Assembly: GCA_964549615.1 (NCBI GenBank)
Contig: CAZJVP010000011.1
Span: 1 to 64,000, forward strand
Source of the DNA: an uncultured Thermococci archaeon
Lineage (GTDB): Archaea; CAYQAE01; CAYVLA01
Direction of reading: 5' to 3'
DNA: 64,000 nt
Shown piece after piece: positions 2-58,167 of the stretch. Position 1 is the stretch's first letter. Every line of letters starts with the position of its first letter. The notes below the pieces were generated by a model. It was given only the letters and a program-made list of their open reading frames with translations, was not told where the DNA came from and did no database searches. A program made the translations under genes and the position numbers.

Positions 2-382
2 AGGGAGGAGATAAACACCCACATCGCAAAGGCCTCGATGCTGATCTCGCTTCTGGAGTTCGTCGAGCGCTTTGGCGCGAACACCGCAAGGCTCTACCGA
101 GACCTGGACGCGATAGAGAAGGTGGAGAAGCAGGCCGAGCAACTCTACGTCGAGGATGATTACGATGGCGCTGCGGAGGTGTTCGAAGAGGTCCACGCCA
201 TGTGGATCGAGGTGAACATGCAGGCGGCAAGGCTGAAGCAGCAATCGCTTTTCTGGGTCTACATGATAGAATGGACTCTGACATCCGCCGTCTTGATCGT
301 ATCCGGCTTCGTTGTGTGGACGCTCATGGTGAAGCGGCGACTCTACCGTGAGGCCCGGACAACGAGGATGCGGGGCGAGTGA
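2..382 (+). CDS. C-terminal part of surface-protein paralogue 1 (FGAN / WVYxIEW / RRLY family); 5' end lies outside the window
   Basis: Open frame from base 2; EFVERFGANT...LFWVYMIEW...WTLMVKRRLYREARTTR matches seven other ORFs in the window. Confidence 0.85.
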   Translation, partial: REEINTHIAKASMLISLLEFVERFGANTARLYRDLDAIEKVEKQAEQLYVEDDYDGAAEVFEEVHAMWIEVNMQAARLKQQSLFWVYMIEWTLTSAVLIVSGFVVWTLMVKRRLYREARTTRMRGE

Positions 383-745
383 TGATGAAGCATTACGCTC
401 CACAGCAACGCGCAACCAGTGTAAGAAATAAGAAGACGGATCTCAATCTGTCGACCCGGAATCTGGCGGAGTGTCTGAACCGTCCCAAGCCTAGTAGGCC
501 TAGGAGACTTGATGGGGCAGCTGACCTGGCCAAGGCCATCTTGGCCCAGCAGTATCTGGGTCTTTCCAACAGGAGGCTCAAGGGCTGTTTGAGGTCTCTG
601 TCCGGCATGTTGGGATTGGTGTGTGGCCCGGGTACAAGGAGGTTGCGTAGCCCTCTGGGCAGCTAGGTGCCGGTTGGTCGACCGAGGTCGTGGACGTTGT
701 GTTTCTTGACGAAGAGAGCGGTGACGGATCTGGCAGTATCCGCCG
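379..745 (+). mobile_element. Degraded DDE transposase remnant (IS fragment)
   Basis: AKAILAQQYLGLSNRR..G.L resembles the N-terminal helical region of archaeal DDE transposases; SGDGSG-like catalytic Asp motif near 718-735 in another frame; frame broken; no terminal repeats found. Confidence 0.45.
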
Positions 746-756
746 GGCTGGGTGAA

Positions 757-853
757 TGGGCCCGCAGGGACTTGAACCCCGGACTTCCGCCCCGTCTACC
801 CGCCCTGAGAGTCGGGCAAAAGGCAGCGTCATAGCCAACTAGACCACGGGCCC
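757..853 (-). tRNA. tRNA-Val, most likely anticodon TAC, with a 23-nt intron (796-818) in the anticodon loop
   Basis: GGGCCCG acceptor stem, A73, Val-type D arm, CTGCC/GGCGG anticodon stem, TTCAAGT T loop; 30 nt between the anticodon stem strands. Confidence 0.85.
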
Positions 854-963
854 TGTGGGCCGAGCGGGTGGGCCTTCACAAAAATATTACCGTTTGTGCC
901 GGGGGGCGCGGCCGAGGCGAAAGCGAGATAACTTTTATTGTTCAGAAGACTTCTTGGAAGAGG

Positions 964-1464: not shown

Positions 1465-1601
1465 TTCAAAGTCCTTGTGCCGCAGACCCGGGTGCGAGCC
1501 CAGGGAGGCTGGGGGGAGCCAGGCGGCGCCGGGGCAGGCGATTTTGGGGCCGTGGGAGTTAGATAAGATTTTTAATCGTAATCCGAGCCCCGCGGCTCTG
1601 C

Positions 1602-2312: not shown

Positions 2313-2321
2313 GGGATCGGA

Positions 2322-4519: not shown

Positions 4520-4548
4520 GGCCTCGTTTGCCGTGCCACCGGGGACCG

Positions 4549-7564: not shown

Positions 7565-8095
7565 TCACGCCCCGACTACGAGCCTGTAGTAGATCGACGT
7601 TCCGGCGGTTGGGCTGCGTCTGTAGATCCGCACCACGTCCCCGGGCTTTCCTCCGAGGATCTTGATGACCGGATCGGTCCGCCTGATCTTCGGAAGCTGG
7701 GAGAGCTCGATCTTCAGCTCGTTGGCGAGCCTCGCCTTCTCATCCTCGCTGAGGATCTCGTGCTTCGGCACCAACTCGTGCTGTAGTATGTCGATGAGCA
7801 CGTTGCGCATGCTCATGTACCTTATGCCCTCCTCAGCCACGACCTTCTTGGCCTGGGGGGTGAGAGGCGCGTCGGAGACGATGTGGACCTCGTTGGCCTT
7901 CTCCTTCTCCGCTCGCTTGAGTAGGGACCTTATCTCCGATACCCCGATTGACTTCTCGCTCGTGATGACCTTGATGATGATCTTCTCGTCTTCGTACGTG
8001 CCGATGAGCTCCTTGCCGCTCCGGACGATGGAATAGCCATCGTCCTCGAACTTCTGGATCGTCCTTCTAAGCATCTCCTCTTCCGCAAGTGGCAA
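7565..8095 (-). CDS. rpoH: RNA polymerase subunit Rpo5/RpoH with a ~100 aa N-terminal extra domain (eukaryotic Rpb5-like)
   Basis: C-terminal HELVPKHEIL...LPKIRRTDPV...GDVVRIYRRSPTAG..YYRLV; TTG start at 8095 preferred because ATG 8137 lies too close to the TATA element at 8143-8152. Confidence 0.92.
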   Translation of the reverse strand: MPLAEEEMLRRTIQKFEDDGYSIVRSGKELIGTYEDEKIIIKVITSEKSIGVSEIRSLLKRAEKEKANEVHIVSDAPLTPQAKKVVAEEGIRYMSMRNVLIDILQHELVPKHEILSEDEKARLANELKIELSQLPKIRRTDPVIKILGGKPGDVVRIYRRSPTAGTSIYYRLVVGA

Positions 8096-8257
8096 GGCTA
8101 AACCTTCCGGTGGTCTGTTGCGAATTCGCTCGGCCATCGCGTTCTTATATGTATCACCGTCAGGCCTCTTGGGGACCGGGCGCGGCAGGGCCGCACAACA
8201 TGGCCGTTTAACGTTCATGCTTCCCGGCAGTCCACATCTGACGCGCACGAGGTGAGA

Positions 8258-9313
8258 TCATCTCATTATCCTTAGGAGCGCAAGCGGCAGGTTGCGATAG
8301 GTGGAGAGGCTCTCGTACTTGCCGTGGCCCAGCCTAGCGAGGCTCCTGCAAACCTCATCCCCCTTCCTTATGCGCCCCACCCTGATCACGTTGAGCCGCC
8401 TGAAGGCTGGGGCAAATTCCCGCGGATCGCCGCCTTGGTTGTAGTCGCCGTCGGTCACGAGGACCGCCCACTTGTCCGGCCGCCGGATCTTGGCCATCTC
8501 CTCGTAGGCTTTCCGCAGGGCGGCCTCGATGTTGGTGTAGCCTGACGGCTTGAGACCGAAGATGGTGTCGATCATCTCCTCGATCGGCACCGTCTTGCTG
8601 AAGGGCTTGAGCACGGTTGGGTCACTTTCGAACAGAACAACGGAGTAGTCATCGTACTTCATGCTGTATGCCAGAACCGCTATCGTCACCGCGGCGATGG
8701 CGAGTTTCTCCCTGTACATCGATCCCGATACGTCAAGTATGAGCATGCCTGCCTTCTTCCTCTCAAGCCTCTCCTGTGCAACGATTTCCCTAGCGCCCAG
8801 GGCCCCATACTCAAGCAGGTTCTCTATGGTCTGTTCGAGATCGAACTCCTCCATCCCGGGCGCATACTCCGCAGTCCTTACGAGGTCCTTCCTGACGCCG
8901 CGCCCAGCGACCCTGAGGGCGGATCGCAGTATGACCTTGCAGGCCATCGATAGGAAGAAGCGCCTATACGACTGGGGCAGCTTGTCCCTGAGCATGTAGT
9001 AGAGTTCCAGAAGCTCCCAATCCTCTCTGTCGGATTTCCCCACGATGAACTCGGATGACATCTCATTGTGCTCGAGCACATCCGCGACGGCGTACCTGTT
9101 GCGCCTGGCCAGACCCAGGAGCGCGGGGAGGTTGTCGGCCTGGATCGCCAGATCAGCGAGCTGGGATATCTTGTTCCTATCAAGCCCCTTGGTCTTCTGG
9201 TAGACATCGTGTGCGTCCGTTGCGTGCACGATCTCCTCTTGGAGGATCTGGTCCCGGTCCATTCGACCGAACCTTACGGCGGCCTCATCGGGGGATATCT
9301 CCCCCTCGATCAC
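8258..9313 (-). CDS. VWA (MIDAS) domain protein, MoxR partner
   Basis: DVSGSM MIDAS, GYTNI, LVTDGD; GTG start overlapping the MoxR stop (GTGA). Confidence 0.88.
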   Translation of the reverse strand: MIEGEISPDEAAVRFGRMDRDQILQEEIVHATDAHDVYQKTKGLDRNKISQLADLAIQADNLPALLGLARRNRYAVADVLEHNEMSSEFIVGKSDREDWELLELYYMLRDKLPQSYRRFFLSMACKVILRSALRVAGRGVRKDLVRTAEYAPGMEEFDLEQTIENLLEYGALGAREIVAQERLERKKAGMLILDVSGSMYREKLAIAAVTIAVLAYSMKYDDYSVVLFESDPTVLKPFSKTVPIEEMIDTIFGLKPSGYTNIEAALRKAYEEMAKIRRPDKWAVLVTDGDYNQGGDPREFAPAFRRLNVIRVGRIRKGDEVCRSLARLGHGKYESLSTYRNLPLALLRIMR

Positions 9314-29650: not shown

Positions 29651-29873
29651 CGACGCTCGCCGCCTCTCGGGCGGCCACGGCACTATGCTTAAGTGTTCTC
29701 GTTTATCCTGGGCCCTTGCAGCGTTGTAGATCCGAGGGTTCCACAGCGGGCAACTGGATTTGCAAAGGTGCCTCTACACGATGGTCGGGCAGGGGCAGGT
29801 CCCATGACGCCTTGGGCTGTGGAAAAAATGGTTGGCATGGCCCTAGGAGATGGCCGGATGAAACGTGCTGAGG

Positions 29874-32129: not shown

Positions 32130-33413
32130 TCATAGGCCAAGCCGCGTTGTGGCTACCTCGCGGTAGAGCCTGCGGCTCACCATCAAGGCCCAGATCACAA
32201 GGCCGCACGTGAGAAGCGTGCCGCTGACGGCCAGCCATTCCGTCACGTAGATCCAGAAGAGCGCCCTGTCCTTCAGTCTCATGGCGTCGTCCTTCAGGCT
32301 TGCTAACGCCGACATCGCCGATTCCATGATCTCTGCTGCATCTGCAAATTCGTAGGCCCGGTACCTCCCATACGATTCCAACCTGAGCTTGTCCGTCTCC
32401 TGCATCCGCAGGTATACGCCCTGCGTGTTGGCCCCGAAACTATCGGCGAAGTCAAGCAGGCTGATGAGCAGCCATCTCTCCACGTTGTAGAAGGAATAGA
32501 GCATGCGCAGGTTGTGTAGCTCGAACGCGTTCTCGGGCAACGGGGCACCCGCCGAGTGAAGGAGGATGTTGATGAAAAGATCGCCCGCGTACTCGTTCTC
32601 AAACTCGCTTCGCAAGAAGATCGGTGACCACCAGGAGGAATCGAGGTCGTCGGCGACGACCCAGAAGATCCCGCCAGCCGGCCCCACCCTCCATGAAACG
32701 AGCCAGTCGCTCTCCTTGCCAAGGCCTAGCGTGATGCCCTTCGATGGAAGTCCCACCACCCTCAATTTGGCCCACACGGTCGCCCCGATCCGCGTCGTGA
32801 GGTAGGTAAAGGCGGTGGATCCCTTAACCCTCTCTATGCCGAGGGGGACGAACATCGATAGCACCGGAGGGTCGTGGTTGACGACCCTTATGCTGAAGAC
32901 TGATCTGTCCTGCTTCATTCCGGCGTTGAGCTCGACGGGCAGTATCTCCCTGAGAGCCGAGTTTGCCCAACCGGGGTAGGCCGACCCGGAGGAGCTCGAT
33001 AGGTCGCCTCCCATCGTCACAAGACCTCCCAGACCGCTCTCCAAAGCATACCTCATGTCGGATATCTGGGATGGGGTGAACGGGTCGAGGTTTCCGTCGG
33101 GGAAAACGAAGAAGTCGATCTCCTTGACCAAGGACTCCCTGGTCCTGGGAAAGTATATCCGGACGTATCTCTGAGCATCCGTGATGCCGAACCTCCCCAC
33201 GCTATCTGCGTCCGTTGGGATGAGCACGAAGTCCGTGAGGGGGTCGGCGCCAAGCCACAGGGGTATGGGCGACTCTCCCGGCAGGACCTGTCCTATGGCC
33301 AGGACGCGAAGCCGTCCCTCACCGAGGGCGGATGGCGAGGCAAGAGAGATCGTTACCAGCGCCAGACATATGCGTTGCCAAGTCTGCCTATGCAGGATCA
33401 AACGCGGGAGCAA
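32130..33413 (-). CDS. Surface-protein paralogue 2 (signal peptide, GATase-like head, helical stalk, C-terminal TM)
   Basis: RIYFPRT, GLGGLVTMGG, FADSFGANT, LFWIYVTEW, WALMVSRRLYREVATTR. Confidence 0.88.
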   Translation of the reverse strand: MLPRLILHRQTWQRICLALVTISLASPSALGEGRLRVLAIGQVLPGESPIPLWLGADPLTDFVLIPTDADSVGRFGITDAQRYVRIYFPRTRESLVKEIDFFVFPDGNLDPFTPSQISDMRYALESGLGGLVTMGGDLSSSSGSAYPGWANSALREILPVELNAGMKQDRSVFSIRVVNHDPPVLSMFVPLGIERVKGSTAFTYLTTRIGATVWAKLRVVGLPSKGITLGLGKESDWLVSWRVGPAGGIFWVVADDLDSSWWSPIFLRSEFENEYAGDLFINILLHSAGAPLPENAFELHNLRMLYSFYNVERWLLISLLDFADSFGANTQGVYLRMQETDKLRLESYGRYRAYEFADAAEIMESAMSALASLKDDAMRLKDRALFWIYVTEWLAVSGTLLTCGLVIWALMVSRRLYREVATTRLGL

Positions 33414-37196: not shown

Positions 37197-37611
37197 GGAA
37201 CTCGCCCTGCTCCATAAGCCTCTCCCAACTCTTCCTCGTCCTCCCGGCGATGCCAACGCTGTAGGCCCTGACCTTTAGGCCGAAGTCCCAAGGCTTGACG
37301 GGCGCCCTGTCGACGAACTTTTTCAGGACCAGAGCGATCTTGGCTTGCACCGACTTATCGATCGGGGAGATCATGATGTCGCTGATGTCCTCGGGCTTGA
37401 GCCAGCCTGGAAAGCCGAGCCCGGCTCTCATCCTGTACCTGTCGTGGTAGACCCTGATCGTATAGACGCCCCCTTCTATATCGAAGTCATCTCCGTTCTC
37501 CACCTGGGAGTGAACGAAGGGTAGGCCTATCTCTCCGAGGATCTGCTCTAGGATTTTGGCCGCCTCCCGGTAGTGGAAGGGGTAGCTTGAGCGCCACGTG
37601 TCCTTTGCCAT
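37189..37611 (-). CDS. Hypothetical protein, first gene of the ABC operon
   Basis: Overlaps the ATPase start; AGGAG SD upstream; no motif recognised. Confidence 0.65.
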   Translation of the reverse strand: MAKDTWRSSYPFHYREAAKILEQILGEIGLPFVHSQVENGDDFDIEGGVYTIRVYHDRYRMRAGLGFPGWLKPEDISDIMISPIDKSVQAKIALVLKKFVDRAPVKPWDFGLKVRAYSVGIAGRTRKSWERLMEQGEFHV

Positions 37612-38378: not shown

Positions 38379-39611
38379 GTGGCGCGGGCCCGCCTGGCCT
38401 TGATGGCCATAGTGGTGCTTTCGTCGTGCTACCCCGGTTGCGGGGCGAAAAGGATCAAGGTGCTTCTCACCGGCCAGATCGACAACGCGATAGAGCCGCT
38501 GCAGATGTGGTTTGCCTCCGAGCCCCTGGTTGACTATCTGCCGGTTCCATCGCGGGACCTTGCGGGCAACCTGGGTGGGGACGAGGCAATGAAGAGGTTC
38601 ATCCGTCTCTACTTCCCCCGCACCCTGAGGGACATCAAGGCCTTCGACTTCATCCTGCTCAACTCGCCCGTCGTGTACCTCTTCACCTCCGAGCAGCTGG
38701 CTTGGATGTACGAAGCGATCGTCGATGGAACCGGCGGGCTGAACACGGCAAGCGTCATGAGCCAGGACGCAAGCATCCACGGGGCGTGGGCCGCCTCGAT
38801 CCTGCAGACGGCATTCCCCAACGATGCGCCCGCCGTGGTCGCGAGATACAAGGGAGCAACGAGCCCGATAGGCGCGTTCCGCATCCGGGTCAACCGCGAG
38901 TTCCCGCAGCCGGTGCTTACGCCCTTCATCCCGCTTGGGGTGGAGACCTTCAATGGCTATGACTCGCGGATCATCATAGCTCGCGAGGGCTCGTCGACGC
39001 TGGCATGGCAGGTCGGAAACTTCCCTGCCCTTGGCGAGGTGCCGTACATCGTGGTCTGGGACTACCAGCTCGGAAGGACGATCACGACGGGCGATGCATT
39101 CGGCCACACGTTCTGGAGCTCCTACCGCGGAGGAAGGATCACCGACAACATCTACGCCCTGGACATGCTCATGAACATGATATTCTACTGCACCCGGCGG
39201 GAACTTCCGGCCGACGTCCTGGCCTTCCACAACATGAGGACCACCTTTGTGGACTTCCGCACGAGGATGGGGCTGCTCGCCGCCTTGATGGAGTTCATCG
39301 ACAGGTTCGGCGCCAACCCGGATCCCATCCAGCGCAAGGCTGCGGAGCTTGAGAAGCTGGCGGGAGCCGCGAGGGAGAGCTACCTGTCACAGGACTTTGA
39401 GACCTGCAGTAGGCTGATGGAGTCGGCCATCGCCGGGTTCTCTGAGGCGGAGGATGTGGCGATTGAGCTAAGGAGAAGGGCCCTGCTGTGGGTTTACGCC
39501 ATAGAGTGGATGGCGACGACGGGGGCGATCATGATCTCAAGCTCCGTCCTCTGGGCGTTGATGGTTAGGCGGAGGCTGTACAAGACAGTGGCCACCACGA
39601 GGGCTGGTTGA
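38379..39611 (+). CDS. Surface-protein paralogue 3
   Basis: GTG start about 25 nt after TTTATC; signal peptide; RLYFPRT, FIDRFGANP, LLWVYAIEW, WALMVRRRLY. Confidence 0.88.
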   Translation: MARARLALMAIVVLSSCYPGCGAKRIKVLLTGQIDNAIEPLQMWFASEPLVDYLPVPSRDLAGNLGGDEAMKRFIRLYFPRTLRDIKAFDFILLNSPVVYLFTSEQLAWMYEAIVDGTGGLNTASVMSQDASIHGAWAASILQTAFPNDAPAVVARYKGATSPIGAFRIRVNREFPQPVLTPFIPLGVETFNGYDSRIIIAREGSSTLAWQVGNFPALGEVPYIVVWDYQLGRTITTGDAFGHTFWSSYRGGRITDNIYALDMLMNMIFYCTRRELPADVLAFHNMRTTFVDFRTRMGLLAALMEFIDRFGANPDPIQRKAAELEKLAGAARESYLSQDFETCSRLMESAIAGFSEAEDVAIELRRRALLWVYAIEWMATTGAIMISSSVLWALMVRRRLYKTVATTRAG

Positions 39612-43723: not shown

Positions 43724-44971
43724 TTAGGTTACTCTCTCGCTAGTGCCCAAGCGGGTCGCCCCTGCTTTGCCATACAATTCCCGCCTGACCATCAGTATCC
43801 AGATCAGGGCCCCGGACAGAACCGAGACGCCGGCCACGGCCATCCATTCCACTGTGTACACCCAGGCCAGCGCCTCATCCTTGAGCCGGATTGACTTGTC
43901 CGTCAGCCTGTTCAATTCCTCCATCAACTCATTCATCAGGGCGTAGGCCTCGTCGAATCGTCCTTCTAGGTACATGGAGTCCGCCGTGGACTTGCGGTCC
44001 TCCAACTCGGCCAGCTCCACGCTCAAGCCTCGGGTGTTTGCCCCGAACATCTCGGCGAATTCGAAAACCGAGATGACTAGGGATCTGTCACGACGGAATG
44101 CCCACAGCATGTCTCTCAGCACATGGACCTTGATGGGGTCCTCGGGAAGCTCCCGGTGAGATCCGTGCCAGATGATGTTAAGTACGACATCGACCGAGAA
44201 CGGGTTCACATTCACATCCAAGAACGGATCGCTTCTTGTGAACCCCATGAATGTGAAGGTGGTTGCAGCCTCATATTCCCACTCGAAGATGTGGGCCACA
44301 TCCCCGGGCAACGGATAGGCATACTCGAGGCGGTCGGTCTTGATCCAGCTGAGTATCTTGCTACCTGGCTTCGGAATGGTGAGAAGCCCGCTGTAGGTCT
44401 GGATCGCCGTCTCGATCTCCTTCTTGAAAGGCCTCACCACGGGGGGGATAGTAGGATCATCGTTCACCACGAGCCTCCCCTGCAACCCAGACGCGTATCC
44501 CGGGTCCCTGATCGCCGCCATCGCATCGTTGGGAAAGGCCTCCGAAAGCGTGCTGGTGGCCCAGCGCTCGGCCAAGTGTAGGTGCACGCTGATGGAACTC
44601 CGGGTGTTTGCCGCCCCCAGCCCGTGAACCGTAATGGCTTCGTACATCCACTGAACCTGCTGTGGCAAAAAGAACGCCATGTCCACCCCCTGGTAAAGCA
44701 TGAAATCATACGAGACTAGATCCTCGAACTTCCTCGGGAAGTAGATCCGCATCATCCTCTCGATGAACCCCACCTCGATTCCACCGGTTGTGGGCTCTCT
44801 GAGGGGGACGATCGTCCCTCGGATGGCAGGATCGGCCAGCATCCATCCACCTACGACCTCGGTGAACTCAGGGTTCACCATGGCGAGAAGACCAATTGTT
44901 GAAGCAGTAGCCGGAAGGCAGGTTGGCAGGAGGAGACAGGTCGCCAGGAGGGCGTCCAGCACCCTCGGCAT
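43724..44971 (-). CDS. Surface-protein paralogue 4
   Basis: Signal peptide MPRVLDALLATCLLL; RIYFPRK, FAEMFGANT, LAWVYTVEW, WILMVRRELY. Confidence 0.88.
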   Translation of the reverse strand: MPRVLDALLATCLLLPTCLPATASTIGLLAMVNPEFTEVVGGWMLADPAIRGTIVPLREPTTGGIEVGFIERMMRIYFPRKFEDLVSYDFMLYQGVDMAFFLPQQVQWMYEAITVHGLGAANTRSSISVHLHLAERWATSTLSEAFPNDAMAAIRDPGYASGLQGRLVVNDDPTIPPVVRPFKKEIETAIQTYSGLLTIPKPGSKILSWIKTDRLEYAYPLPGDVAHIFEWEYEAATTFTFMGFTRSDPFLDVNVNPFSVDVVLNIIWHGSHRELPEDPIKVHVLRDMLWAFRRDRSLVISVFEFAEMFGANTRGLSVELAELEDRKSTADSMYLEGRFDEAYALMNELMEELNRLTDKSIRLKDEALAWVYTVEWMAVAGVSVLSGALIWILMVRRELYGKAGATRLGTSERVT

Positions 44972-46143: not shown

Positions 46144-47403
46144 TCACCGGGGCGCAAGCCTCGTGTATCGGACCTGCCTGTAGAGCCTTCGTCGGACCAT
46201 TAGTGACCAGAGCAACAGCCCACACACGAGCGCCGTTCCGGTAACGGCCAACCAGTCGATCACGTAGACCCAGACGAGAGCCCTGTGCTTGAGCCTCATC
46301 GCCTCGCCCTCGAGGTTCTCCATCATCTGGCCCGCGGTCCGGTAGCTCTCAAGCGCATCCTCGAAGCGCAGGTTGAGGTACTGGGGAAGAGCACCGGCAA
46401 CCACCCGGTCGATCTCGGTCAGCCTGTCCACGATCCTTTGGGTGTTTGCCCCGAACGACTCGCAGAACTCCAGCAAGGCTAGGAGCATGGACCGCCTTGT
46501 CGCGACCTCAAATATCTTCGACCTCGTGGCCTCCACCAGCGCCAAATCCTGGGGTACAGTCCTATCATCAAGGTAGATGAGGAGGTTGGCGCAGAAGTCA
46601 TAGACATACTTCCATCTCACGGAATAGAGGTACCATCCGCCCTCGCTGGCAATCGAGAACGTCCTCGGCCCGCCCTCAAGCCTCCATGTTACCATCAGGG
46701 GAGCATCGCATCCGGGCGAGACGACCCGTGCAAGCTCCTCGGCCCCGGGCCTAACGGTCAGGTAGTTGTGGTCCCATGGACCACCGCGCAGGGCAGGGTC
46801 ATCTGGGTCCCAGGGGATGCTTCTCATGAGCTCGTGTTCGGGCTTCAGTACGACTATTCGATGCTGTGGGGAGTCGTGCCAACCGCCGGGGACGTCCTCG
46901 GTCGGAAGCAGCGGCCCGATCGGTGTCTCACCCCACGCGGGATAGCCAGCGTAGCCGCCGAACGACTGCCAACCGCCGGTCATGACCATGCCCAGCCCGC
47001 CTTCGGAGACGGCGCGGGCCAGCTTGTCTATGTGCTGCCCGACCGCATGGACGTTGGCCTCGAAGAAGACGATCACATCGTAGTTCGAAACCACGTCTTG
47101 GAGGGTCCTGGGCATGTAAAGCCTGACGAGCCTGTTCAGGTCCTCAATTGTCGGGGCGGGCATCGGTCCGAAGAGCATGAAGTCCCGGATCGTGGCCTGG
47201 ACGAAGGTGGGCCGGAAGAGGGGATCGGACCTCATCAACCAGTACGGCATGGACCGCGCGACGCACCCCACGTAGAGCACGCCGATCCTGCCATCCTCTA
47301 GGCACCATGTCGCCGGAATAGCCACGAGGAGCAGGCAGAGCAGGAGGCCACCGGAGACCTGCGCCTTGCTGTAGGCACGGGCAGATTTCAATGGTTTCGT
47401 CAT
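46144..47403 (-). CDS. Surface-protein paralogue 5
   Basis: GGLGMVMTGGWQSFGG..W..TPIGPLLP (DUF1355-like), FCESFGANT, LVWVYVIDW, WSLMVRRRLY. Confidence 0.9.
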   Translation of the reverse strand: MTKPLKSARAYSKAQVSGGLLLCLLLVAIPATWCLEDGRIGVLYVGCVARSMPYWLMRSDPLFRPTFVQATIRDFMLFGPMPAPTIEDLNRLVRLYMPRTLQDVVSNYDVIVFFEANVHAVGQHIDKLARAVSEGGLGMVMTGGWQSFGGYAGYPAWGETPIGPLLPTEDVPGGWHDSPQHRIVVLKPEHELMRSIPWDPDDPALRGGPWDHNYLTVRPGAEELARVVSPGCDAPLMVTWRLEGGPRTFSIASEGGWYLYSVRWKYVYDFCANLLIYLDDRTVPQDLALVEATRSKIFEVATRRSMLLALLEFCESFGANTQRIVDRLTEIDRVVAGALPQYLNLRFEDALESYRTAGQMMENLEGEAMRLKHRALVWVYVIDWLAVTGTALVCGLLLWSLMVRRRLYRQVRYTRLAPR

Positions 47404-49058: not shown

Positions 49059-49263
49059 GTGGCCATCAAGCGCCTCCGTAAGGACATCGTCGGGCTTCGG
49101 AGAGAAGTGGAGTTGATCAGACACATGCTGGAAGAGGACTACGATGTGGAGGAGAAAACAAGGAGAACACCGGAGCAAGAGAGGACGCCTGAGTCGGAGC
49201 ACGTGGATCTCGATGAGCCATAGGGTGAGACTGCACCCCAACGCCGTCAAGTCGATCCTTTCC
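49059..49263 (+). pseudogene. RelB-like antitoxin and truncated RelE-like toxin remnant
   Basis: Coiled-coil/acidic small ORF ending HVDLDEP overlaps MSHRVRLHPNAVKSIL (archaeal RelE-type N-terminus), cut off by the opposite-strand sulfatase remnant. Confidence 0.45.
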
Positions 49264-49740
49264 ACCACCCAGTGTCTGCTTGCGCCAGAAACCGTGCGGC
49301 CCCAGCATGTCACCGTGGTCTGAGGTGAAGACAAGTATGGTGTCCCTTTCGAGGCCGTTCTGCTTGAGTGCCTGATCAAGCATGCCGATGCAGCCGACCA
49401 TAGCGGTGCAGCCGACCATAGCGGTTATGTGGGCGTAGTGGCCGGCGAGACGCCGCTTAGCAAGATCCTCGCAATCGTCGGGAACGTTGGGCCTCAGGAC
49501 GAGGGAATCGGGCCTGTATGTAGGCGGTATCAGAGCCGGCTCCGGCAAAGGCATAAGCGATGGAGACTGCGTCGTGGTTGAGGTGAAGGTCGTTCATGAA
49601 GACCCCCTGTGTCAGGGGTACCTGCTGGTAACCATGCAGGCCCTAGCCGGCTGTAGACCGGGCAACCTATGGCCGCGTTCGTGAAGGAGATGTTTCAGCT
49701 GGCCAGCGCATCGAGGTTGGGCGTCTTGACGTTCGGGTCA
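49262..49740 (-). pseudogene. Sulfatase pseudogene (deleted and frameshifted)
   Basis: PNVKTPNLDALA, LRPNVP, YAHITA, DTILVFTSDHGDMLG.HG..RKQ; active-site motif destroyed. Confidence 0.75.
49390..49425. repeat. Perfect 18-bp tandem duplication GCAGCCGACCATAGCGGT x2
   Basis: Directly visible; yields TAMVGCTAMVGC on the minus strand. Confidence 0.9.
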
Positions 49741-50101: not shown

Positions 50102-51394
50102 ATGAGGGTGGGATGCCTGCGCAATGCTGAGTCGGGCAAGAGAAGTGCACATCAGAGGCACCGCGCCATCTGCGTCGCAACCGTTGCATCAGTCCTGCTC
50201 GTCCTCGCGGAGATCGGCCATGGCTTGGAGGACGGCCGAATAGGGGTGCTGTACGTCGGCTGCATAGCCCGATCGCGGCCCTTCTGGCTCATGAGGTCGG
50301 ATCCCCTGTTCCGCATGGGCTTCGTGCAGGCGACGCTTCGGGACTGGGCGGCCGTCGGCCCCATGCCTGCGATGAGCGAGGCCCAGGTTCACAGGATGGT
50401 GAGGATGCAGATGCCCCGCACGTATGACGATCTGGTGGAGCGGTACGACGTCGTGGCTCTTCACAACGCCAACGTTCTCGCCGTCTCGCCCCACATCCAG
50501 AAGATGGCCCGCGGGGTCTCAGAGGGGGGACTCGGTCTGCTGATGTCGGGCGGGTGGGAGTCCTTCGGGGGGACGGGGTCGTCGTATCCGCCCTGGGGCG
50601 GGACGGCCGTCGGCGAGCTTCTCCCAACGGAGGATGTGGTCGGCACCTGGGTTCCCTCTGGGCGCCTAGGGATCGACGAGCCGCGCCACGAGCTGATCAG
50701 CAGTCTCCCCTGGGATCTGACCGACCTTGACCTGACAAACGAGGTGAAGTGGGACCACAATCTCGTGACCCTTAAGCCGGGCGCCGAGCAGCTCGCGCAT
50801 GCAACGTACATGGGCCGGGACGATCCTCTCATGGTCGTCTGGACCTTGGACAACGGCGCCAGGGTCTTCGCCCTGACGAGCGAGATCCATCGCTTCTTCT
50901 GGCAGGGCGGGGAGTACCGCAACGTGTGGAGGTACGCTTACGACTACGGTTGTAACCTCATGATCTACCTGGACAACCGCCCCGTGCCGCAGGACGTCGG
51001 GCTCGTGCACGCCGCCAGGGCCAAGATGTTCGAGGTTGAGACCAGGAGATCGCTGCTCGTCGCGCTCCTGGAGTTCTGCGAGTCATTTGGAGCGAGCACC
51101 CGTAGCATCTCATCCAGCTTCGAGGAGATAGATTCGGTGATCGCCGAGGCCCTGCCGCAGTACCTTCAGCTCCAGTTCGAGGAGATGCTGGAGAGCTACC
51201 GCGTTGCGGGCGAGATGCTGGCCAGGGCGGAGGAGGAGGCGGTGAGGCTAAAGAACCGCACCCTGCTCTGGGTCTACGTGATAGAGTGGTTGACCGTGAC
51301 CGGCACGGCGATGGTCTGCGGCTTCCTGCTGTGGTCCCTGATGGTCCGCCGAAAGCTATACCGCGAGGTCCGGATCACGAGGTTCGCGATGTAG
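50102..51394 (+). CDS. Surface-protein paralogue 6 (closest to paralogue 5); start uncertain
   Basis: LEDGRIGVLYVGC, GGLGLLMSGGWESFGG, FCESFGAST, LLWVYVIEW, WSLMVRRKLYREV. Confidence 0.9.
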   Translation: MRVGCLRNAESGKRSAHQRHRAICVATVASVLLVLAEIGHGLEDGRIGVLYVGCIARSRPFWLMRSDPLFRMGFVQATLRDWAAVGPMPAMSEAQVHRMVRMQMPRTYDDLVERYDVVALHNANVLAVSPHIQKMARGVSEGGLGLLMSGGWESFGGTGSSYPPWGGTAVGELLPTEDVVGTWVPSGRLGIDEPRHELISSLPWDLTDLDLTNEVKWDHNLVTLKPGAEQLAHATYMGRDDPLMVVWTLDNGARVFALTSEIHRFFWQGGEYRNVWRYAYDYGCNLMIYLDNRPVPQDVGLVHAARAKMFEVETRRSLLVALLEFCESFGASTRSISSSFEEIDSVIAEALPQYLQLQFEEMLESYRVAGEMLARAEEEAVRLKNRTLLWVYVIEWLTVTGTAMVCGFLLWSLMVRRKLYREVRITRFAM

Positions 51395-52500: not shown

Positions 52501-53484
52501 CTAGATGCGCTTGGAGGGGGATTTGCGCACGAAGGTAAGCCAGTAGACCGCTATGGATCCAAGCGACCCGCCCACGATTGCGAATACGTTCCTGAGCAGG
52601 CAGGAAAGATTTGCCGCCCTCTCCCTGTCCTCGGCCGCCCTTCTCAACGAATCGATCGTCCGCGCCGTATGCTGGTAGAACTGCTCGGCCTTCGATACGC
52701 TATCCTGGAACTTCTGCTCGTTCGTCCAGACCCAGTACAGCGAGTTCGTGAAGAGTGTCCTGAATGCCGGTTCGTTGATGAAGAGGCCGAAGTAGCCTTG
52801 ACTCCTTTCGATGTCGTCCCCGCCGAAGGTTGCGAAGGTCACGGAGACGCCCTCGTCGCGGTACCTCACGAGAAGTGGCGCCCCGGTGCTCTGTTCCGTG
52901 AACAGCACCTTGTACTCGCCCGACTTGGGCCGTTTCTCCTCGAAGAGGCCCGATGAGAGGTTCCGGTGAAGGATGAACCTGTGATGGGCCGCACTGAAGC
53001 TCGAGATTCCCTCGGAGATCTCGTCCTCCTCGGCCTTGATGAAGCTGATGAAGGATTTCCTGGAGACGGGGTCGTAGGTGCCGGAACCATACGAGTTGCC
53101 GAATATGGGCAGGACGTCCTCCGAGGCGTTGCGGCTTGCCGACCACATGGTGGCGAAGCCCATTCCCACGATGCCACCCCCCTTGTTGAAGAACCACTCT
53201 AGGGTCGAGTTGAGATCTTGCCCGACGTCCCGCGCGAGGCTCACCACGATGGCTTTCACGTCCGGGAAGAACGCCGCGGCCCTGAACTCGTCCAACCGTT
53301 GACAGACCTGCACTCTCGCCTCGGCGAATCTGCCATCCTCCTCGATCACGGTTCGCAGGGCCTGGCCGTAAAGCGGTGCGGCGGGGCAGTAAATGAGTAT
53401 CACGGGCGCAACGGAGCTTTCGGCCCAGGCGACGAGGGATTGTGAGAGAACGAGCACCAACAGGAGGGCAATTCGCCTGGGCAT
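52501..53484 (-). CDS. Secreted ThuA/GATase-like domain protein with short stalk and C-terminal TM
   Basis: Signal peptide MPRRIALLLVLVL; WFFNKGGGIVGMG; FRTLFTNSLYWV; TM followed by RKSPSKR. Confidence 0.75.
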   Translation of the reverse strand: MPRRIALLLVLVLSQSLVAWAESSVAPVILIYCPAAPLYGQALRTVIEEDGRFAEARVQVCQRLDEFRAAAFFPDVKAIVVSLARDVGQDLNSTLEWFFNKGGGIVGMGFATMWSASRNASEDVLPIFGNSYGSGTYDPVSRKSFISFIKAEEDEISEGISSFSAAHHRFILHRNLSSGLFEEKRPKSGEYKVLFTEQSTGAPLLVRYRDEGVSVTFATFGGDDIERSQGYFGLFINEPAFRTLFTNSLYWVWTNEQKFQDSVSKAEQFYQHTARTIDSLRRAAEDRERAANLSCLLRNVFAIVGGSLGSIAVYWLTFVRKSPSKRI

Positions 53485-53591: not shown

Positions 53592-54461
53592 ATGGGCAGC
53601 GGGAGGGGTCGGTTCTTGGTCGACACGAGACTCGTGGGCGTACTGGCAATCGCTGCGATAGTCTCGACCACCCTCTCCATCCTTGTCTTCAGCAGGGTGG
53701 ATGAAGAGAGGATAGAGGTTCTCAAAAACCACTGGGAAACTCCGACGGTGGGCGGGTGGTGGCACCTGCCTTTGGCCGAGGGTGCGGTTCCCTATACCCT
53801 CGGGGTCGTCGCGCGGAAGCCGTTGGGCCGGGTCTCGATAAGGTTCGGCGTGCTGAGAAACCAGTCCTTCAGCCTCAACTACACCGGCCTGCAGGGGCTA
53901 TCGGCTAGGGAGATCGCCTCAAGGGTCACGGAACTTTCATTTCTGGACTCTCGGGCCAGGGATTTAGCCCTTCACATGGATGTGAAGCCAATCGAGCACG
54001 AGGTCGATGCCACATTCGGCGGTGCTCGGCGGAGGGTGCTTGTGATCGATTACTATCCTTGCCTTGAGGCCCTGGTGGATCCGGGCTGGCCGCTGGAGGC
54101 ACCCTATCTCTTTGCCCTCGTCTTCGACGGATCAGGGAACCTTTCGCAGCTCTACTCCGGCTTCTGGGATTTCTTCGAGGCCTGCGCGGCGAGCGTGCCG
54201 GAGATCGCCATCCAGCTTAACGAGAAGATCACGAGGTACGCCAATGAGCAGAACATGGCCGAGGGCCGCCTGCCGATCAGCATGACCCGCGAGATGGTGG
54301 GAAAGGTCTCCTTCGACGACCTTAGGAGGGACGACCGCATATTCGTAAGCTTCAGGGTGAACGGCGCGGCCGTGCCCGGAGATGCGGCCTTCATGCAGAT
54401 CATACGCCTCGAAGTTGATGGGGAGTACCTAGACCCCCTGATCAACGTCCTGAGAAGGTGA
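53592..54461 (+). CDS. Hypothetical N-terminally anchored membrane protein
   Basis: LVGVLAIAAIVSTTLSILVF TM; N-x-S/T sequons (NQS, NYT, NLS); divergent from 52501-53484. Confidence 0.65.
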   Translation: MGSGRGRFLVDTRLVGVLAIAAIVSTTLSILVFSRVDEERIEVLKNHWETPTVGGWWHLPLAEGAVPYTLGVVARKPLGRVSIRFGVLRNQSFSLNYTGLQGLSAREIASRVTELSFLDSRARDLALHMDVKPIEHEVDATFGGARRRVLVIDYYPCLEALVDPGWPLEAPYLFALVFDGSGNLSQLYSGFWDFFEACAASVPEIAIQLNEKITRYANEQNMAEGRLPISMTREMVGKVSFDDLRRDDRIFVSFRVNGAAVPGDAAFMQIIRLEVDGEYLDPLINVLRR

Positions 54462-54516: not shown

Positions 54517-55704
54517 CTACCTCTCGCCGAGACGCGTGACCGCGACCTCCCGATATAGCCTCCTTCGGATCATCACGGTCCAGAGGATGAATCCGCAGAC
54601 CATGCCCGTTGCCGTCACCGATAGCCACTCGATGACGAAGACCCAGAGCAGCGCCCTGTTCTTGGCCCTCATCATGTCATTGCTCAGCTGCCGCATGTCG
54701 TCGTTGGCGTCGGCCAGTATCTCGGTCGCCTTTGCCATGTCGCCGTCGACGAAGGCCTCTTCGGCGAGCAATCGCCTCCCCCTCGTCTCGCCAAGCTTGA
54801 CTTCGAATGGTCGAAGGTTGGCGCCGAAGCGGTCGACGAACTCTATGACGCTGATCGCCACCCTCACCTGTTCGTCCAACGCGGCGAAAAGCGCGCGCGC
54901 CTCATGGACAAGCTCCAGGTCATCCGGGAAGGGGAGGCCTGTGGCAAAGCAGAGATGGTTGAACACGTAGTCGGGAAGGTACCTCCAGAACCTCTTGACC
55001 TCGTCCGGCATGGTGTCCCAACCGTGGTCGTAGTGCAAGACCATACCATTCCCATAGGCCCGCGTGACGAAGGCGGGCGTCTTCCTCCCGCTCCAGACAG
55101 CCCATATCGTTGTGCCCTCCTTTGGGATCAGGTCACCGTGATGGCCCCAGTTGATGATGATCTTCTCCATGTCGGGGAAGTCCACCAAGGGTCCATGTGT
55201 GACTATCTCGTAGCGCTGCCTTCCCTTAATGGCTTCGATGCAGTTGGGATAAAGCTCCGCCGGGAACGCATCGTATAGGGTGGTCTCCTGCCAGTACTCC
55301 ATCCCGCACATCGAGACGCGTTGGGCGAACTCGACCAGTAGCAGCCCGATGCCCTCGTACACCCCCTTTCTGAACCATTCCAGGTAAGTGTCCGTGAGCA
55401 CCTTGGGCGAGAAGTCGTGGAAGATCATGACGTCTGTGCCCGAGACGAGGTCGCTGTACCTCCTAGGGAGGTAGGCCCTGGCGAACCTCACCGCCTCGTC
55501 GTATCCCAGAACCAAGATGGTGCAGGGGACCGTCCCGACGAGCTGGAACCTTGGGTCCGTCCCCAGCATGTCGATGAACATGTGGTTGTTCGCGACGACC
55601 TCGCCGACCCACAGGACCTTTTTCTTGCCATCGGTCCCTCCAAGCCCGCCGATGCACGGAATTGAGAGCAGCAAGAGAAGGACGGGCAGATGCTTTCTCG
55701 GCAC
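54517..55704 (-). CDS. Surface-protein paralogue 7
   Basis: Signal peptide; RAYLPRR, FVDRFGANL, LLWVFVIEW, WTVMIRRRLYREVAVTR. Confidence 0.88.
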   Translation of the reverse strand: MPRKHLPVLLLLLSIPCIGGLGGTDGKKKVLWVGEVVANNHMFIDMLGTDPRFQLVGTVPCTILVLGYDEAVRFARAYLPRRYSDLVSGTDVMIFHDFSPKVLTDTYLEWFRKGVYEGIGLLLVEFAQRVSMCGMEYWQETTLYDAFPAELYPNCIEAIKGRQRYEIVTHGPLVDFPDMEKIIINWGHHGDLIPKEGTTIWAVWSGRKTPAFVTRAYGNGMVLHYDHGWDTMPDEVKRFWRYLPDYVFNHLCFATGLPFPDDLELVHEARALFAALDEQVRVAISVIEFVDRFGANLRPFEVKLGETRGRRLLAEEAFVDGDMAKATEILADANDDMRQLSNDMMRAKNRALLWVFVIEWLSVTATGMVCGFILWTVMIRRRLYREVAVTRLGER

Positions 55705-55854
55705 GGGGTGTCCCGAAAGCAGCCTAGTACATAAATCGCATCCCAGGCACCGTCCGAAGCCTTGACTCCCGAGGATGGATTCGGACCGGGTGGGTTCGAG
55801 CCTGCTAACTGCTTCCCAGCATCAAACCTGTTCGTGCTCAGCGCTTCCTCCCCG

Positions 55855-56790
55855 TCATAGACCCTCTCGGTCCACTGTGAGGAGGGCGGCCAGAATCGAC
55901 TGTGTGGCCATCGCGACGTTCGGGATATCGACCGATTCCGGCACATCGGTCTCAAGGTGGTAGTTCGGATCGGCGTAGGGATGGGACCCGACATTGGCGA
56001 TGGCAGCTGGGAAGCCCGCATTCACGAAGGAGCCGTCGTCGTCCCCGGGCTGCAGTCGCTTGTGGATTGACTGTTCCAGCCCGATGCCGTACTCCTCGTT
56101 CACCTCGCTCATCAGCTCGGCCAGTGGCCGCCCCTCGGGCATCGTGTAGAGCGTGGCATTCGTCTTTCGCCCGGCATCAACGTCGGCCTGTGGCTTCCCA
56201 CCCAAGGAGTCCGTGTTGAAGACCGCGATGATGTTGTCTCCTCGCGCCCCGGCAGCCTGTGCGGCCGTCACGCTGGTCCACGGAGTGTGCTCCTCGTTGC
56301 AGAAGAGGAACACGACCGAACGACGGGTCGCCTCGTGGGATAGGATGCGGGCCATCTCTATGAGCGCGACCGTCCCCACCGCGTTGTCGTATGCGCCCGG
56401 CGAGTCCAGCCAGCTTTGTGAGTCCTTGTGGGCACAGATTACGATGATTTCCTCCGGCCGCTCCGTGCCGGCCTTCCTTGCATACAGGTTGTGGGCCGTG
56501 TACCAGGGGTCCTTTGGATCGGGCTTGCCGTACTGGTGGGCCTTCGGTTTGGAAGGGTCACGGCGGTATGCCTGGACGCGCACGCCCTCCCTTTCGACCG
56601 CGTAGCCCCATCCCTCCAACTGCGCCTGAATGTAGTCATCAGCCTCGTCGAGGGTGCTCTCCTTGTGCCCGGGAAGGGTGCAATTAAGCTTGCGAAATGG
56701 TAGCGGGTGTTTGGAGAGGTAAAACAGGTCAGCGGAGAGGCGGGAGGCATCGATACCATCAATGAGTCGAGCGATCTTGTTGTCAGGCAT
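55855..56790 (-). CDS. M28 family metallopeptidase
   Basis: AHKDS, PGAYDNAVG, NEE, NTDS, YH..TD zinc ligands. Confidence 0.88.
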   Translation of the reverse strand: MPDNKIARLIDGIDASRLSADLFYLSKHPLPFRKLNCTLPGHKESTLDEADDYIQAQLEGWGYAVEREGVRVQAYRRDPSKPKAHQYGKPDPKDPWYTAHNLYARKAGTERPEEIIVICAHKDSQSWLDSPGAYDNAVGTVALIEMARILSHEATRRSVVFLFCNEEHTPWTSVTAAQAAGARGDNIIAVFNTDSLGGKPQADVDAGRKTNATLYTMPEGRPLAELMSEVNEEYGIGLEQSIHKRLQPGDDDGSFVNAGFPAAIANVGSHPYADPNYHLETDVPESVDIPNVAMATQSILAALLTVDREGL

Positions 56791-56928
56791 GCCATGTGGC
56801 ACCTCGGTGTTGATGCTCAGACATGCGCACCCAACTTCCTCGTCGCGGTCCCGTGTGTGCCCCGCTTTGTCGCTTGGGTCGGCGTCCAGGGGCCGGGACA
56901 GGCAACGGGTTGAGCGTCTTCGAGGGTC

Positions 56929-58167
56929 TCATGCCCGTCTTGTCACCCCCGCCTCCCTATACAACCGCCTCCTGACCATCAACGTCCAGGAGAGGAACGC
57001 TACGGCGCAAATTGTCCCGGTGACTGCCGACCACTCCACCGCGTAGACCCAGAACATGGCGCGTGCCTTGAGGATGATGGCCCTCTGCTCGACCCTATTG
57101 GTGAGGTCGAAGGCCTCCCGCAGAAGGGCTTGGGACGACTCGAAGTCCTGTGAAAGATATTCCTCCCCGGCACGCTCGACGAGCACGTCGGCCTCCGTTA
57201 TCTGCTCCTGCAGGCTCCGACTGCTGGCGCCGAACTTCTCGACGAAGTCCAGCAGGGAGTACAGGACCCCAGTCCTGAGAACGTAGTCCTTGAACCTACC
57301 TCTGAGGATGTGGACCAACATGGGGTCCGATGGCAGTTCCCTGCGGAGCGAGTACCAGACGATGTTGGTGAATATGTCCAGAGCATACCTCTCCTTGCCA
57401 TCTCCTCCCCACCAGTATCCCCACATGGGGCTGACGAACTGGTCGCCGGTAGCCCAGATCCTAGAAGCCCTGTCGCCGAACTCCCATGAAAGAAGGAGCG
57501 GACAGCTGGTCTTGCCGAGCTTGAAGGGTATGTCCTTTGCCCTGGCCCACTCCGTGGTACCTTCCTTGGGGAACAGCAGCCGGGTGTAGCCGAAGGGCTT
57601 GACGCTCTCGATGCCAAGGGCCTTGTACGGCCTGATCACCGGCGGGAGGGACGGATCGTCCACGATCTCCAGGTTGTAGGCCTCTATGTTGTCGAACGCC
57701 GTGGCGATGAACTTCTCCTGGTCGTGCGGAAAGGCCTTGGGCAGGTCGGAGCTCATCCAGGGGACGTACATCTCGGGATACGCGCTCTGTGTGAAGCCGA
57801 GTGCTCCAGTTCCCTCCTTCTCCAAAGCTCTGTACATCCACTCGATCTGCGCGGGGTCATGGTGTTGCAGATACGGCTGGTCGTAGACGAAGAAGTCGTA
57901 CGAGAGCAAGGCTTCGTACGATCGGGGCATATAGATCCGGATGAATCTGCGTAGCTCCTCGGTGGTGTAGATACCGGCATGGATGGACCTTGAGACCACG
58001 AGCGTGCCCTCCAGGGAGGGCTCGGCCCTGAGGAAGTCGGATATCGGGCTATAGCTGGGGTCGACCTGCCCCATGGCAAGTATGTTGATGACCCGCCTTC
58101 CACATGCGACAGAGGATCCCGAGAGGAGGACGGTGAGGGCTGCTAAGGCAGTCCAACGGGACTCCAC
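56929..58167 (-). CDS. Surface-protein paralogue 8; GTG start inferred
   Basis: Signal peptide WTALAALTVLLSGSSVAC; RIYMPRS, FVEKFGASS, MFWVYAVEW, WTLMVRRRLYREAGVTR. Confidence 0.88.
   Translation of the reverse strand: MESRWTALAALTVLLSGSSVACGRRVINILAMGQVDPSYSPISDFLRAEPSLEGTLVVSRSIHAGIYTTEELRRFIRIYMPRSYEALLSYDFFVYDQPYLQHHDPAQIEWMYRALEKEGTGALGFTQSAYPEMYVPWMSSDLPKAFPHDQEKFIATAFDNIEAYNLEIVDDPSLPPVIRPYKALGIESVKPFGYTRLLFPKEGTTEWARAKDIPFKLGKTSCPLLLSWEFGDRASRIWATGDQFVSPMWGYWWGGDGKERYALDIFTNIVWYSLRRELPSDPMLVHILRGRFKDYVLRTGVLYSLLDFVEKFGASSRSLQEQITEADVLVERAGEEYLSQDFESSQALLREAFDLTNRVEQRAIILKARAMFWVYAVEWSAVTGTICAVAFLSWTLMVRRRLYREAGVTRRA

Follow-up and report, generated by a model that had tools for sequence, protein, structure and literature searches.

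The window analysed here is a 64,000-nucleotide stretch from an uncultured Thermococci archaeon, namely the start of contig CAZJVP010000011.1 (C11:1-64000) in a 3.21-Mb assembly of 104 contigs (GCA_964549615.1, hereafter G000). It contains eight open reading frames (ORFs) of a surface-protein family, referred to as the main family, which an earlier note made from the letters alone had singled out as sharing one architecture of a variable head, a conserved stalk and an anchor. The first 26 kb of the window hold core archaeal genes (RNA polymerase subunits, EF-2, EF-1alpha, aRF1 and ArgRS), and the seven complete copies lie in the remainder, amid sulfatase, PD40, GNAT, ABC-2 transporter, M28 peptidase and BNR genes. 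The eighth copy is partial because the window begins at a contig end. The copies are listed below with window coordinates, strand and support, the latter mostly from a hidden Markov model (HMM) built from the eight; 'elbow' denotes the nucleophile-elbow segment of the head.

2..382, + strand: C-terminal 126 aa of a copy (stalk, membrane helix and tail); HMM E 1.7e-55
32130..33413, - strand: copy of 427 aa, elbow segment TMGGDLSS; HMM E 3.4e-167
38379..39611, + strand: copy of 410 aa, elbow segment NTASVMS; alignment and HMM
43724..44971, - strand: copy of 415 aa, elbow segment NTRSSIS; alignment and HMM
46144..47403, - strand: copy P0005, 419 aa, PF07090-like elbow GGWQSFGG; PF07090 at 26.6 bits
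50102..51394, + strand: copy P0006, 430 aa, 57% identical to P0005, elbow GGWESFGG; PF07090 at 18.2 bits
54517..55704, - strand: copy P0007, 395 aa, in a cassette with members of families 3 and 2 (described below); 55 nt from the family-3 gene, convergent
56929..58167, - strand: copy of 412 aa; HMM E 1.9e-167

All eight ORFs are open at these coordinates, with the start codons of four lying inside longer stop-to-stop frames, and they can be aligned along their full length, where identity to P0005 ranges from 26 to 57%. The HMM recovers the seven complete copies with E values of 1e-147 to 1e-167 and the partial copy at 1.7e-55, which excludes chance as the source of their likeness. On this sequence comparison the eight are confirmed as real paralogs. 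Every motif listed in the earlier note is present in the alignment, that is, (D/E)P, RxYxPR, W..L..(AF/LL)P, D...N...P.D and (E/D)F.(E/D).FGA(N/S), including the RMQMPR variant in the copy at 50102-51394; the alignment also displays a membrane helix and an RRRLY..TR tail.

The family extends far beyond the window. A search with the eight-copy HMM of all 28,840 stop-to-stop frames of at least 60 aa in G000 returned 146 frames at E<=1e-3, of which 126 are near full length, starting at or before model position 60 and ending at or after position 401 of 416. The remaining 20 comprise pieces cut at contig ends, copies broken by frameshifts (such as those at C11:125018-126468 and C52:38707-39920) and weak fragments. 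With a crude choice of start codons, median length is 415.5 aa across the 126 genes, which together occupy 158,685 nt, or 4.9% of the genome, so that the earlier estimate of many dozens of copies per genome was right in kind but too low. A hydrophobic N-terminal segment is found in 109 of the 126, the misses stemming mostly from approximate start calls. Single linkage at 40% identity divides the 126 copies into 40 groups, the largest with 28 members, and the window's seven complete copies are spread over six of these groups. Recent tandem duplication was considered as the source of local clusters and rejected, because proximity brings no greater likeness: median identity is 28.4% for pairs under 6 kb apart and 27.3% for other pairs.

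The distribution of the family was examined in 41 archaeal genomes. The GTDB phylum comprises five species genomes only; G000 to G003 form one GTDB family with three genera, G001 being in the same genus as G000, and G004 is the remaining genome of the phylum. The eight-copy profile finds matches in four of the 41 genomes, all four in that one GTDB family, and none in G004, the one other genome of the class, or in the 36 other archaea. A profile of the C-terminal 134 residues built from the 126 sequences matches 139 times in G000, at least 150 times in G001, 148 times in G002 and 94 times in G003, whose assembly is 91% complete and in 500 contigs, with no match in G004 (98% complete). Searched with this C-terminal profile, a set of 1.84 billion representative proteins yields 465 clusters at E<=1e-3 and 397 at 1e-10; the Atlas clusters are 100% Archaea. 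In all of the 150 best of the 465 clusters the module is C-terminal, and full-length members measure ~380-470 aa, the rest being fragments. The few close homologs that carry a name are hypothetical proteins of 'Theionarchaea archaeon' or 'uncharacterized membrane protein'. This is a massively expanded family of single-pass type I surface proteins restricted to one archaeal lineage, in agreement with the lineage specificity originally proposed. Among the papers listed on PF07090-type proteins, on Theionarchaea and on sulfatases and polysaccharides in archaea there was no description of such a family, nor is one mentioned in the available part of a paper on Theionarchaea (PMC9258230).

The fold of the head was examined in three ways. 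The Pfam family PF07090, named GATase1_like (for class I glutamine amidotransferase, GATase) and formerly DUF1355, reaches 26.6 bits on P0005 against a cut-off of 27 and 18.2 bits on P0006; the remaining six window copies have no Pfam match at E<=1, and NCBIfam yields no match. A precomputed PF07090.18 match is listed for P0005 and many close homologs. A profile of P0005 and 108 relatives, compared with solved chains, retrieves 3rht (1.5e-12), 2gk3 (7.4e-7) and 3soz (8.6e-7). The AlphaFold model of P0005, with a mean predicted local distance difference test score (pLDDT) of 93.2, consists of a signal peptide (residues 1-34), an alpha/beta/alpha head (~40-280) and helices at 287-316, 322-343 and 347-414, with the membrane span at ~378-402 inside the last. 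Foldseek places 2gk3, 3soz and 3rht at ranks 1-4 for this model with target template-modelling (TM) scores of 0.66-0.69, followed by the N-terminal domain of IFT52, Wbp1/OST48 of the oligosaccharyltransferase, Agd3, ThuA-like proteins and the GATase-like domains of the glycoside hydrolases GH42 and GH164. The DUF1355-type head recognized in the earlier note is borne out by the profile and the fold, with the Pfam score just under its cut-off, and the note's statement that no described family has the full signature also stands, as no curated Pfam or NCBIfam family spans the whole protein.

The head has the fold without a conserved triad. Residues retained in at least 90% of the 126 copies (P0005 numbering) are G46, P61, R94, Y96, P98, R99, G136, W157, P167, G220, D269 and D286, followed by R294, F313, G318, Y342, W378, E383, W384, G395, M402, R405, Y408 and T414. 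In none of the head columns do Cys, His or Ser reach 75% of the copies, which excludes the Cys-His-Glu triad that, with its elbow Cys, distinguishes class I glutamine amidotransferases. The elbow segment reads GG[WYF]xS[FYW] in only 20 of the 126 copies and is replaced in the others by group-specific variants such as ADDSSSFATS, NTRSVMS, VEMGWY and KYEMNYDP; as first noticed in the window, a Cys at the nucleophile position is not conserved. The head is a PF07090/GATase1-like fold without a conserved catalytic triad, probably non-catalytic, and not an intact amidotransferase. Elsewhere in the genome, a 601-aa ORF (locus L022:2528-4333, + strand, equal to G000:C20:218271-220076) has a weak match to the head (model positions 87-237, E 2e-7), lacks the anchor and is left without a Pfam assignment at E<=1e-8; the fold may occur here in a different architecture.

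Beyond the head, the chain continues as three helices. The last of them passes without a break into the membrane helix, which is strongly conserved and is followed by a basic tail in the cytoplasm. The head is extracytoplasmic and the topology type I. We place the heads outside the cell because of the signal peptide, the basic residues past the membrane helix and a bias in glycosylation sequons, described below, that is sensible only outside.

Conservation is unevenly distributed along the protein. In pooled comparisons, paralogs share 22-32% identity across the head segments and 28% across the stalk (286-374), compared with 51% across the membrane helix, and column entropy over the 126 copies is lowest at 373-412. 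Of the 'conserved stalk/anchor' in the earlier note, the membrane helix and the EFxxFGAN motif do stand out, but the stalk as a whole is no better kept than the head.

Between genomes the picture of a variable head changes. For a sample of orthologs we took the 40 G001 proteins scoring best against the window-eight profile, a choice biased toward the window copies. Their best G000 matches are 36-90% identical (median 70%), and the second-best matches have a median of 55%. Twenty ortholog pairs were defined by an identity of at least 68% and at least 3 points above the second-best match. Pooled Nei-Gojobori (NG86) estimates of nonsynonymous (dN) and synonymous (dS) divergence for these pairs are dN 0.130, dS 1.02 and ratio 0.127 for the head, 0.207, 1.07 and 0.193 for the stalk, and 0.132, 0.86 and 0.152 for the helix and tail; the ratios are rough because dS, at ~1.0, is close to saturation. 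Ortholog identity is 77-87% in the head segments and 69% in the stalk, while that of EF-2 is 84%. The heads do diverge among paralogs, as the word 'variable' requires, but the fast variation it implies does not hold, as ortholog heads experience purifying selection and change at a slower pace than the stalk. The heads are old and distinct, each under purifying selection, and they make up a fixed repertoire rather than fast-changing variation, because ortholog heads are conserved between genomes at a dN/dS of ~0.13. As a separate observation, G000 and G001 are far apart for one genus, because their EF-2 proteins are only 84% identical.

Two further families are linked to the main family in the genome. 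Within the window, one member of each accompanies the copy at 54517-55704 (-), and the three together form a cassette.

52501..53484, - strand: family 2 member, 327 aa, sequon-rich, with a head remotely related to the main-family head (hhalign)
53592..54461, + strand: family 3 member, 289 aa with our choice of start (281 aa in the public record), with a signal-anchor helix and a sequon-rich beta-sandwich (model pLDDT 89.3, no Pfam match)

Family 2 was found through a screen for C-terminal helix-plus-basic tails and comprises 17 ORFs of ~320-350 aa with a signal peptide, an alpha/beta head, a helix and a membrane helix of its own sequence. Nine of 16 ORFs found by BLAST lie within 1.2 kb of a main-family copy (2.8 expected, P 0.0008). 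An hhalign comparison with the 126-paralog alignment gives 90.4%, E 1.4e-6, over 209 columns, whereas with the narrower P0005-subgroup alignment the head goes undetected and the tail region alone aligns (5.9%). Against solved chains the family-2 profile finds only the ThuA-like 4jqs (E 0.69), with no match in Pfam. On the broader alignment, the family-2 head is a remote relative of the main-family head.

The gap between family-2 and main-family genes is constant at ~850 nt and is occupied by family 3. This family comprises 31 ORFs of ~260-300 aa with an N-terminal signal-anchor helix (DR.L.G....LV.ST) and an ectodomain for which none of the 20 members scanned has a Pfam match. The ectodomain is modeled as beta-rich; Foldseek finds nothing above a TM score of 0.27 for it, and VIA-align returns generic Ig-like, pilin or adhesin sandwiches with a best Z of 9.7 (root mean square deviation 3.0 over 116 residues), which is in the commonly seen range, and the fold was assigned to no family. 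A main-family copy is directly adjacent to 19 of the 31, and 13 of these 19 are co-directional, main copy then family 3, with gaps of -16 to +22 nt. A family-2 gene is adjacent to 14 of the 31, accounting for 14 of the 17 family-2 genes. Across the 19 pairs, distances among main copies correlate with those among their partners (r 0.50, Mantel P 0.0002).

The arrangement is retained across three genera. Families 2 and 3 are both present in G001-G003 and were not found in G004. Counted by eye from listed coordinates, at least 18 family-3 genes of G001-G003 lie within 100 nt of a main-family copy, a lower bound, since the listing covered 150 of the 531 anchor matches. The same succession of main copy, family 3 and family 2 is seen, for example, at G001:C2:14147-17271, G002:C6:29161-32259 and G003:C33:6967-10106. 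By its position, family 3 is a candidate shared partner for part of the main-family set. Other unannotated ORFs of the window were rejected as recurrent partners, since 21 of the 23 examined lack any paralog at E 1e-6 and only one or two paralogs exist for the remaining pair.

The three families differ sharply in their sequons (N-x-S/T, where x is not Pro), the expectation being taken from residue shuffles. Main-family ectodomains contain 16 sequons against 119.0 +/- 10.1 expected, a ratio of 0.13, and the value is much the same in 112 public homologs (0.13), 82 anchor-bearing representatives (0.11) and the 40 G001 copies (0.12); a crude background for the genome is 1.30. Families 2 and 3 are instead enriched 2.8- to 4.4-fold, with 47 sequons against 17.0 expected in family 2, 83 against 28.9 in family 3 and 68 against 15.4 in public homologs of family 3. 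STT3/AglB genes are present in G000. The simplest reading of these counts would be that proteins of all three families encounter the N-glycosylation machinery on the outside of the cell, those of families 2 and 3 being glycoproteins while selection keeps the main family bare.

In the wider neighbourhood, a total of 243 immediate non-family neighbour ORFs was defined, 235 of them within the retrieved DNA, and 220 were scanned by Pfam; a family was assigned to 38 of 95 at E<=1e-5 and to 58 of 125 at E<=1e-8, and no annotated partner family recurs among the 220. Glycan-related neighbours include fucosidase (2), GH10, GH20, melibiase, BNR_2, GxGYxYP, DUF6259 (2) and heparinase II/III, as well as FG-GAP/carrageenase-type propellers, sulfatase, xylose-isomerase-like TIM barrels and GFO/IDH/MocA. 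Sulfatases occupy 17 PF00884 places in G000, eight of which are within 3 kb of a main-family copy (4.4 expected, P 0.04). With the window sulfatase at 28352-29683 (-) as query, 58, 76 and 29 matches are found in G001, G002 and G003 and none in G004, the same phyletic pattern as that of the surface family.

Two further candidate roles were considered. A general role as a GldG-like auxiliary of ABC-2 transporters was rejected on the position of ABC2_membrane_2 loci, four of 12 of which are within 3 kb of a copy (3.0 expected, P 0.36), even though the window has an ABC-2 pair at 35512-37256 between two main-family copies. Unlike GldG-type ABC auxiliaries (PF09822), the main family shows neither a PF09822 match, which is absent from the window copies and seen at only two weak places elsewhere in the genome, nor linkage to ABC-2 permeases. 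The PrsW protease was likewise considered as a processing partner and found no support, as the genome has two PrsW genes, one of them beside a copy.

Toxin-antitoxin-type genes (PIN, HEPN, HepT-like and nucleotidyltransferase) lie directly beside copies at loci L006, L018, L024, L026, L077, L078, L082 and L086, which fits the location of the copies in accessory regions. The claim that copies stay intact while neighbouring genes decay was checked in part: a sulfatase remnant lies at 49165-49551 (-), but frameshifted copies of the family itself exist elsewhere in the genome. The remnant matches only ~residues 250-410 of ~500-aa proteins by tblastn, with Pfam coverage confined to model positions 217-255, and is the sole clear decayed gene seen beside a copy.

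How the heads work can be approached through proteins of similar fold. Our preferred interpretation, which we hold tentatively and by analogy, is that the main family is a surface repertoire of non-catalytic ligand-binding heads, the ligands probably being glycans. The heads would be non-enzymatic binding modules, most likely for glycans, in the manner of the Agd3 (CBM87) fold and of proposals made for GIFT domains. Each paralog would have one fixed specificity, and the set as a whole would be a stable surface repertoire with which the cell, well supplied with sulfatases and glycoside hydrolases, captures or senses polymers. The membrane helix that all paralogs share would act as a permanent anchor and give all heads one common membrane context, through self-association or a shared partner, and sequon avoidance would prevent the cell's own N-glycans from covering the surface used for binding or packing. 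In favour of the glycan reading are the sulfatases close to the copies and their expansion in the same genomes, the glycan-related neighbours and the precedents of Agd3 and the GIFT domains.

The closest known systems each match the main family in part. The solved PF07090 members 3RHT (Planctomyces limnophilus), 2GK3 (STM3548) and 3SOZ (STM1381) share profile homology, the fold and, in 20 of the 126 copies, the elbow GG(W/Y)xS(F/Y)xG. However, they are stand-alone chains of ~250 aa that their depositors called cytoplasmic, whereas the main-family domain is secreted, sits on three helices and a private anchor, exists in more than 100 copies and has mostly replaced the elbow. The CBM87 domain of Aspergillus fumigatus Agd3 (6NWZ) has the same fold (Foldseek rank 8, E 2.3e-5), but there is no detectable sequence relation, and it is fused to a deacetylase in Agd3 while the main-family head stands alone on its anchor. 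According to its description, this N-terminal domain is closest in structure to 3RHT, lacks the triad and binds galactosaminogalactan via aromatic residues that occupy, on the C-terminal edge of the sheet, the position of the GATase triad (PMC7229062). GIFT domains are also retrieved by Foldseek (5fmr, E 3.6e-6; 7oci_G, 2e-5; 6s7t_G, 2.4e-4). Wbp1/OST48 spans the membrane in type I topology, its domain lying in the lumen ahead of a single C-terminal helix and a short tail, and the main family resembles it in topology, helix and tail. The GIFT domains of GldG, IFT52 and Wbp1 have been proposed as sugar binders, and Wbp1 may recruit the lipid-linked oligosaccharide or be a docking platform, according to a review (PMC7226087). 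Unlike these proteins, the main family has no Pfam match to ABC_transp_aux or IFT52_GIFT, ABC-2 permeases are not enriched nearby, and nothing ties it to the oligosaccharyltransferase.

Several observations weigh against a glycan-binding repertoire. The function of the solved PF07090 proteins is not known, and STM3548 is described accordingly in the available part of one paper (PMC13432705). Aromatic residues (Trp, Tyr and Phe) make up 13.5% of the elbow segment against 10-19% in the rest of the head, which is no excess, with Trp alone raised at 5.4%. The glycan context of the copies is mild, the sulfatase enrichment having a P of 0.04; that 25 of the 96 annotated neighbours are glycan- or sugar-related by Pfam name is a figure from our own classification with no background control. 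The selection estimates carry the bias of the ortholog sample and the near-saturation of dS. Family 3 is not an obligate partner in cis, because 107 of the 126 main copies have no family-3 neighbour. Finally, two untyped archaeosortase genes share the family's phyletic pattern, and the 'anchor' may be cleaved.

An unlikely alternative is that the proteins are structural, acting as subunits of a coat or adhesion layer that pack through their common membrane helix and have no specific soluble ligand; families 2 and 3 would then be co-subunits bearing glycans. A gene dosage as high as 4.9% of the genome, a membrane helix invariant across the variants and the Ig-like, pilin- or adhesin-like beta-sandwich of family 3 (best Z 9.7) are all consistent with such a layer, and sequon avoidance could mean tight protein-protein packing. 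Yet archaeal coat proteins are usually few, abundant and heavily glycosylated, whereas the main family avoids sequons. With at least 40 divergent groups of heads, every one conserved across genera, distinct specificities are a better fit than a single lattice, and the family-3 Z values are of a commonly seen size.

Comparable doubt attaches to a second alternative, which is about the anchor only and is compatible with a binding head. Here, the C-terminal module would be a family-specific sorting signal for an untyped archaeosortase, with helix and tail cleaved and the protein attached to a lipid or the envelope, as in the PGF-CTERM/ArtA system. As in that system and PEP-CTERM, the end of the protein is tripartite, with a conserved (I/V)EW at the outer edge, a hydrophobic helix and a basic RRR cluster, and there are more than 100 candidate substrates per genome, like those of exosortase systems. 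Two exosortase/archaeosortase-family genes are present in each of G000-G003 and none in G004, although this phyletic match is based on five related genomes. Both G000 genes pass the general model TIGR04178 only (56.2 and 40.4 bits, cut-off 23) and none of the subtype models. The genes are at G000:C88:53688-54371 and G000:C51:56558-57319 (loci L134 and L135), and one adjoins a GT4 glycosyltransferase.

The details of the module point the other way. None of the curated CTERM models reaches its cut-off on the family tails, the best being PVV_CTERM at 12-15 bits against 27, or on five other candidate tails; the few other ORFs with PEP-like tails could serve the sortases, but none passes a model. 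Known sorting signals are shared by unrelated proteins, whereas this module is private to one head family in 138 of 138 genome matches, and no other architecture occurs among the 150 best of the 465 clusters. The motif is without Pro or Gly, no low-complexity linker precedes the helix, residues 347-414 form one unbroken helix in the P0005 model, and ~12 conserved residues (LYREV..TR) follow the basic cluster. A permanent anchor is favoured on four grounds: the helix is continuous, a Pro/Gly motif and a linker are missing, the tail after the basic cluster is conserved, and the module is confined to a single head family.

The third alternative, in our judgement improbable, makes the heads enzymes, such as glycan hydrolases or lyases with one substrate per paralog, whose unconventional active site would lie in the GATase-like cleft. 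It would draw on the fold of class I amidotransferases and ThuA-like proteins, on purifying selection acting on each head type, on the neighbourhood rich in catabolic enzymes and on a P0005 subgroup that keeps the near-invariant polar residues E191, S195, H212, N213 and D269. However, neither the Cys-His-Glu triad nor any other polar constellation is conserved across the 126 copies, and the nucleophile-elbow segment is swapped wholesale between groups. The closest solved relatives have no known activity, and the same fold is non-catalytic in Agd3, GH42, IFT52 and OST48.

The favoured glycan-binding repertoire can be extended to all three families, in what we regard as a long shot. In this extension they would form a combinatorial surface recognition system, of a kind not described in any domain, in which more than 100 unglycosylated lectin-like heads on one membrane helix are paired with the N-glycosylated families 3 and 2 and read glycans, including those of their partners or of neighbouring cells, for polymer capture or for cell-cell or self recognition.

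The devotion of 5% of a genome to one surface-protein family is rare among prokaryotes, and this family is private to one uncultured, sediment-type archaeal lineage with bacterial-style sulfatases and glycoside hydrolases. If the heads bind glycans, they would represent an archaeal means of surface polymer capture unrelated to SusC/D or solute-binding proteins and would assign the PF07090 fold, so far uncharacterised, its first function. The depletion of sequons in the main family and their enrichment in families 2 and 3 make a clean signal that is open to testing, and they suggest a part for N-glycosylation in determining which surface proteins of archaea may carry glycans. The conserved membrane helix, in turn, offers a handle for a shared partner or a new sorting route.

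Two genes in the core part of the window deserve mention on their own. Bacterial PF07090-type domains accompany VWA/BatA-type proteins, and the window has a 544-aa ORF at 8258-9892 (-) with a C-terminal von Willebrand A (VWA) domain and a weak DUF58 match; no link between it and the surface family was seen in the window. Archaeal RpoH is usually a short C-terminal domain only. The adjacent ORF at 7565-8248 (-) encodes a 227-aa protein in which the RNA polymerase Rpb5/RpoH C-terminal domain occupies residues 152-224 and is preceded, at residues 66-146, by a Mrr_cat/restriction-endonuclease-like stretch (E 2e-5).

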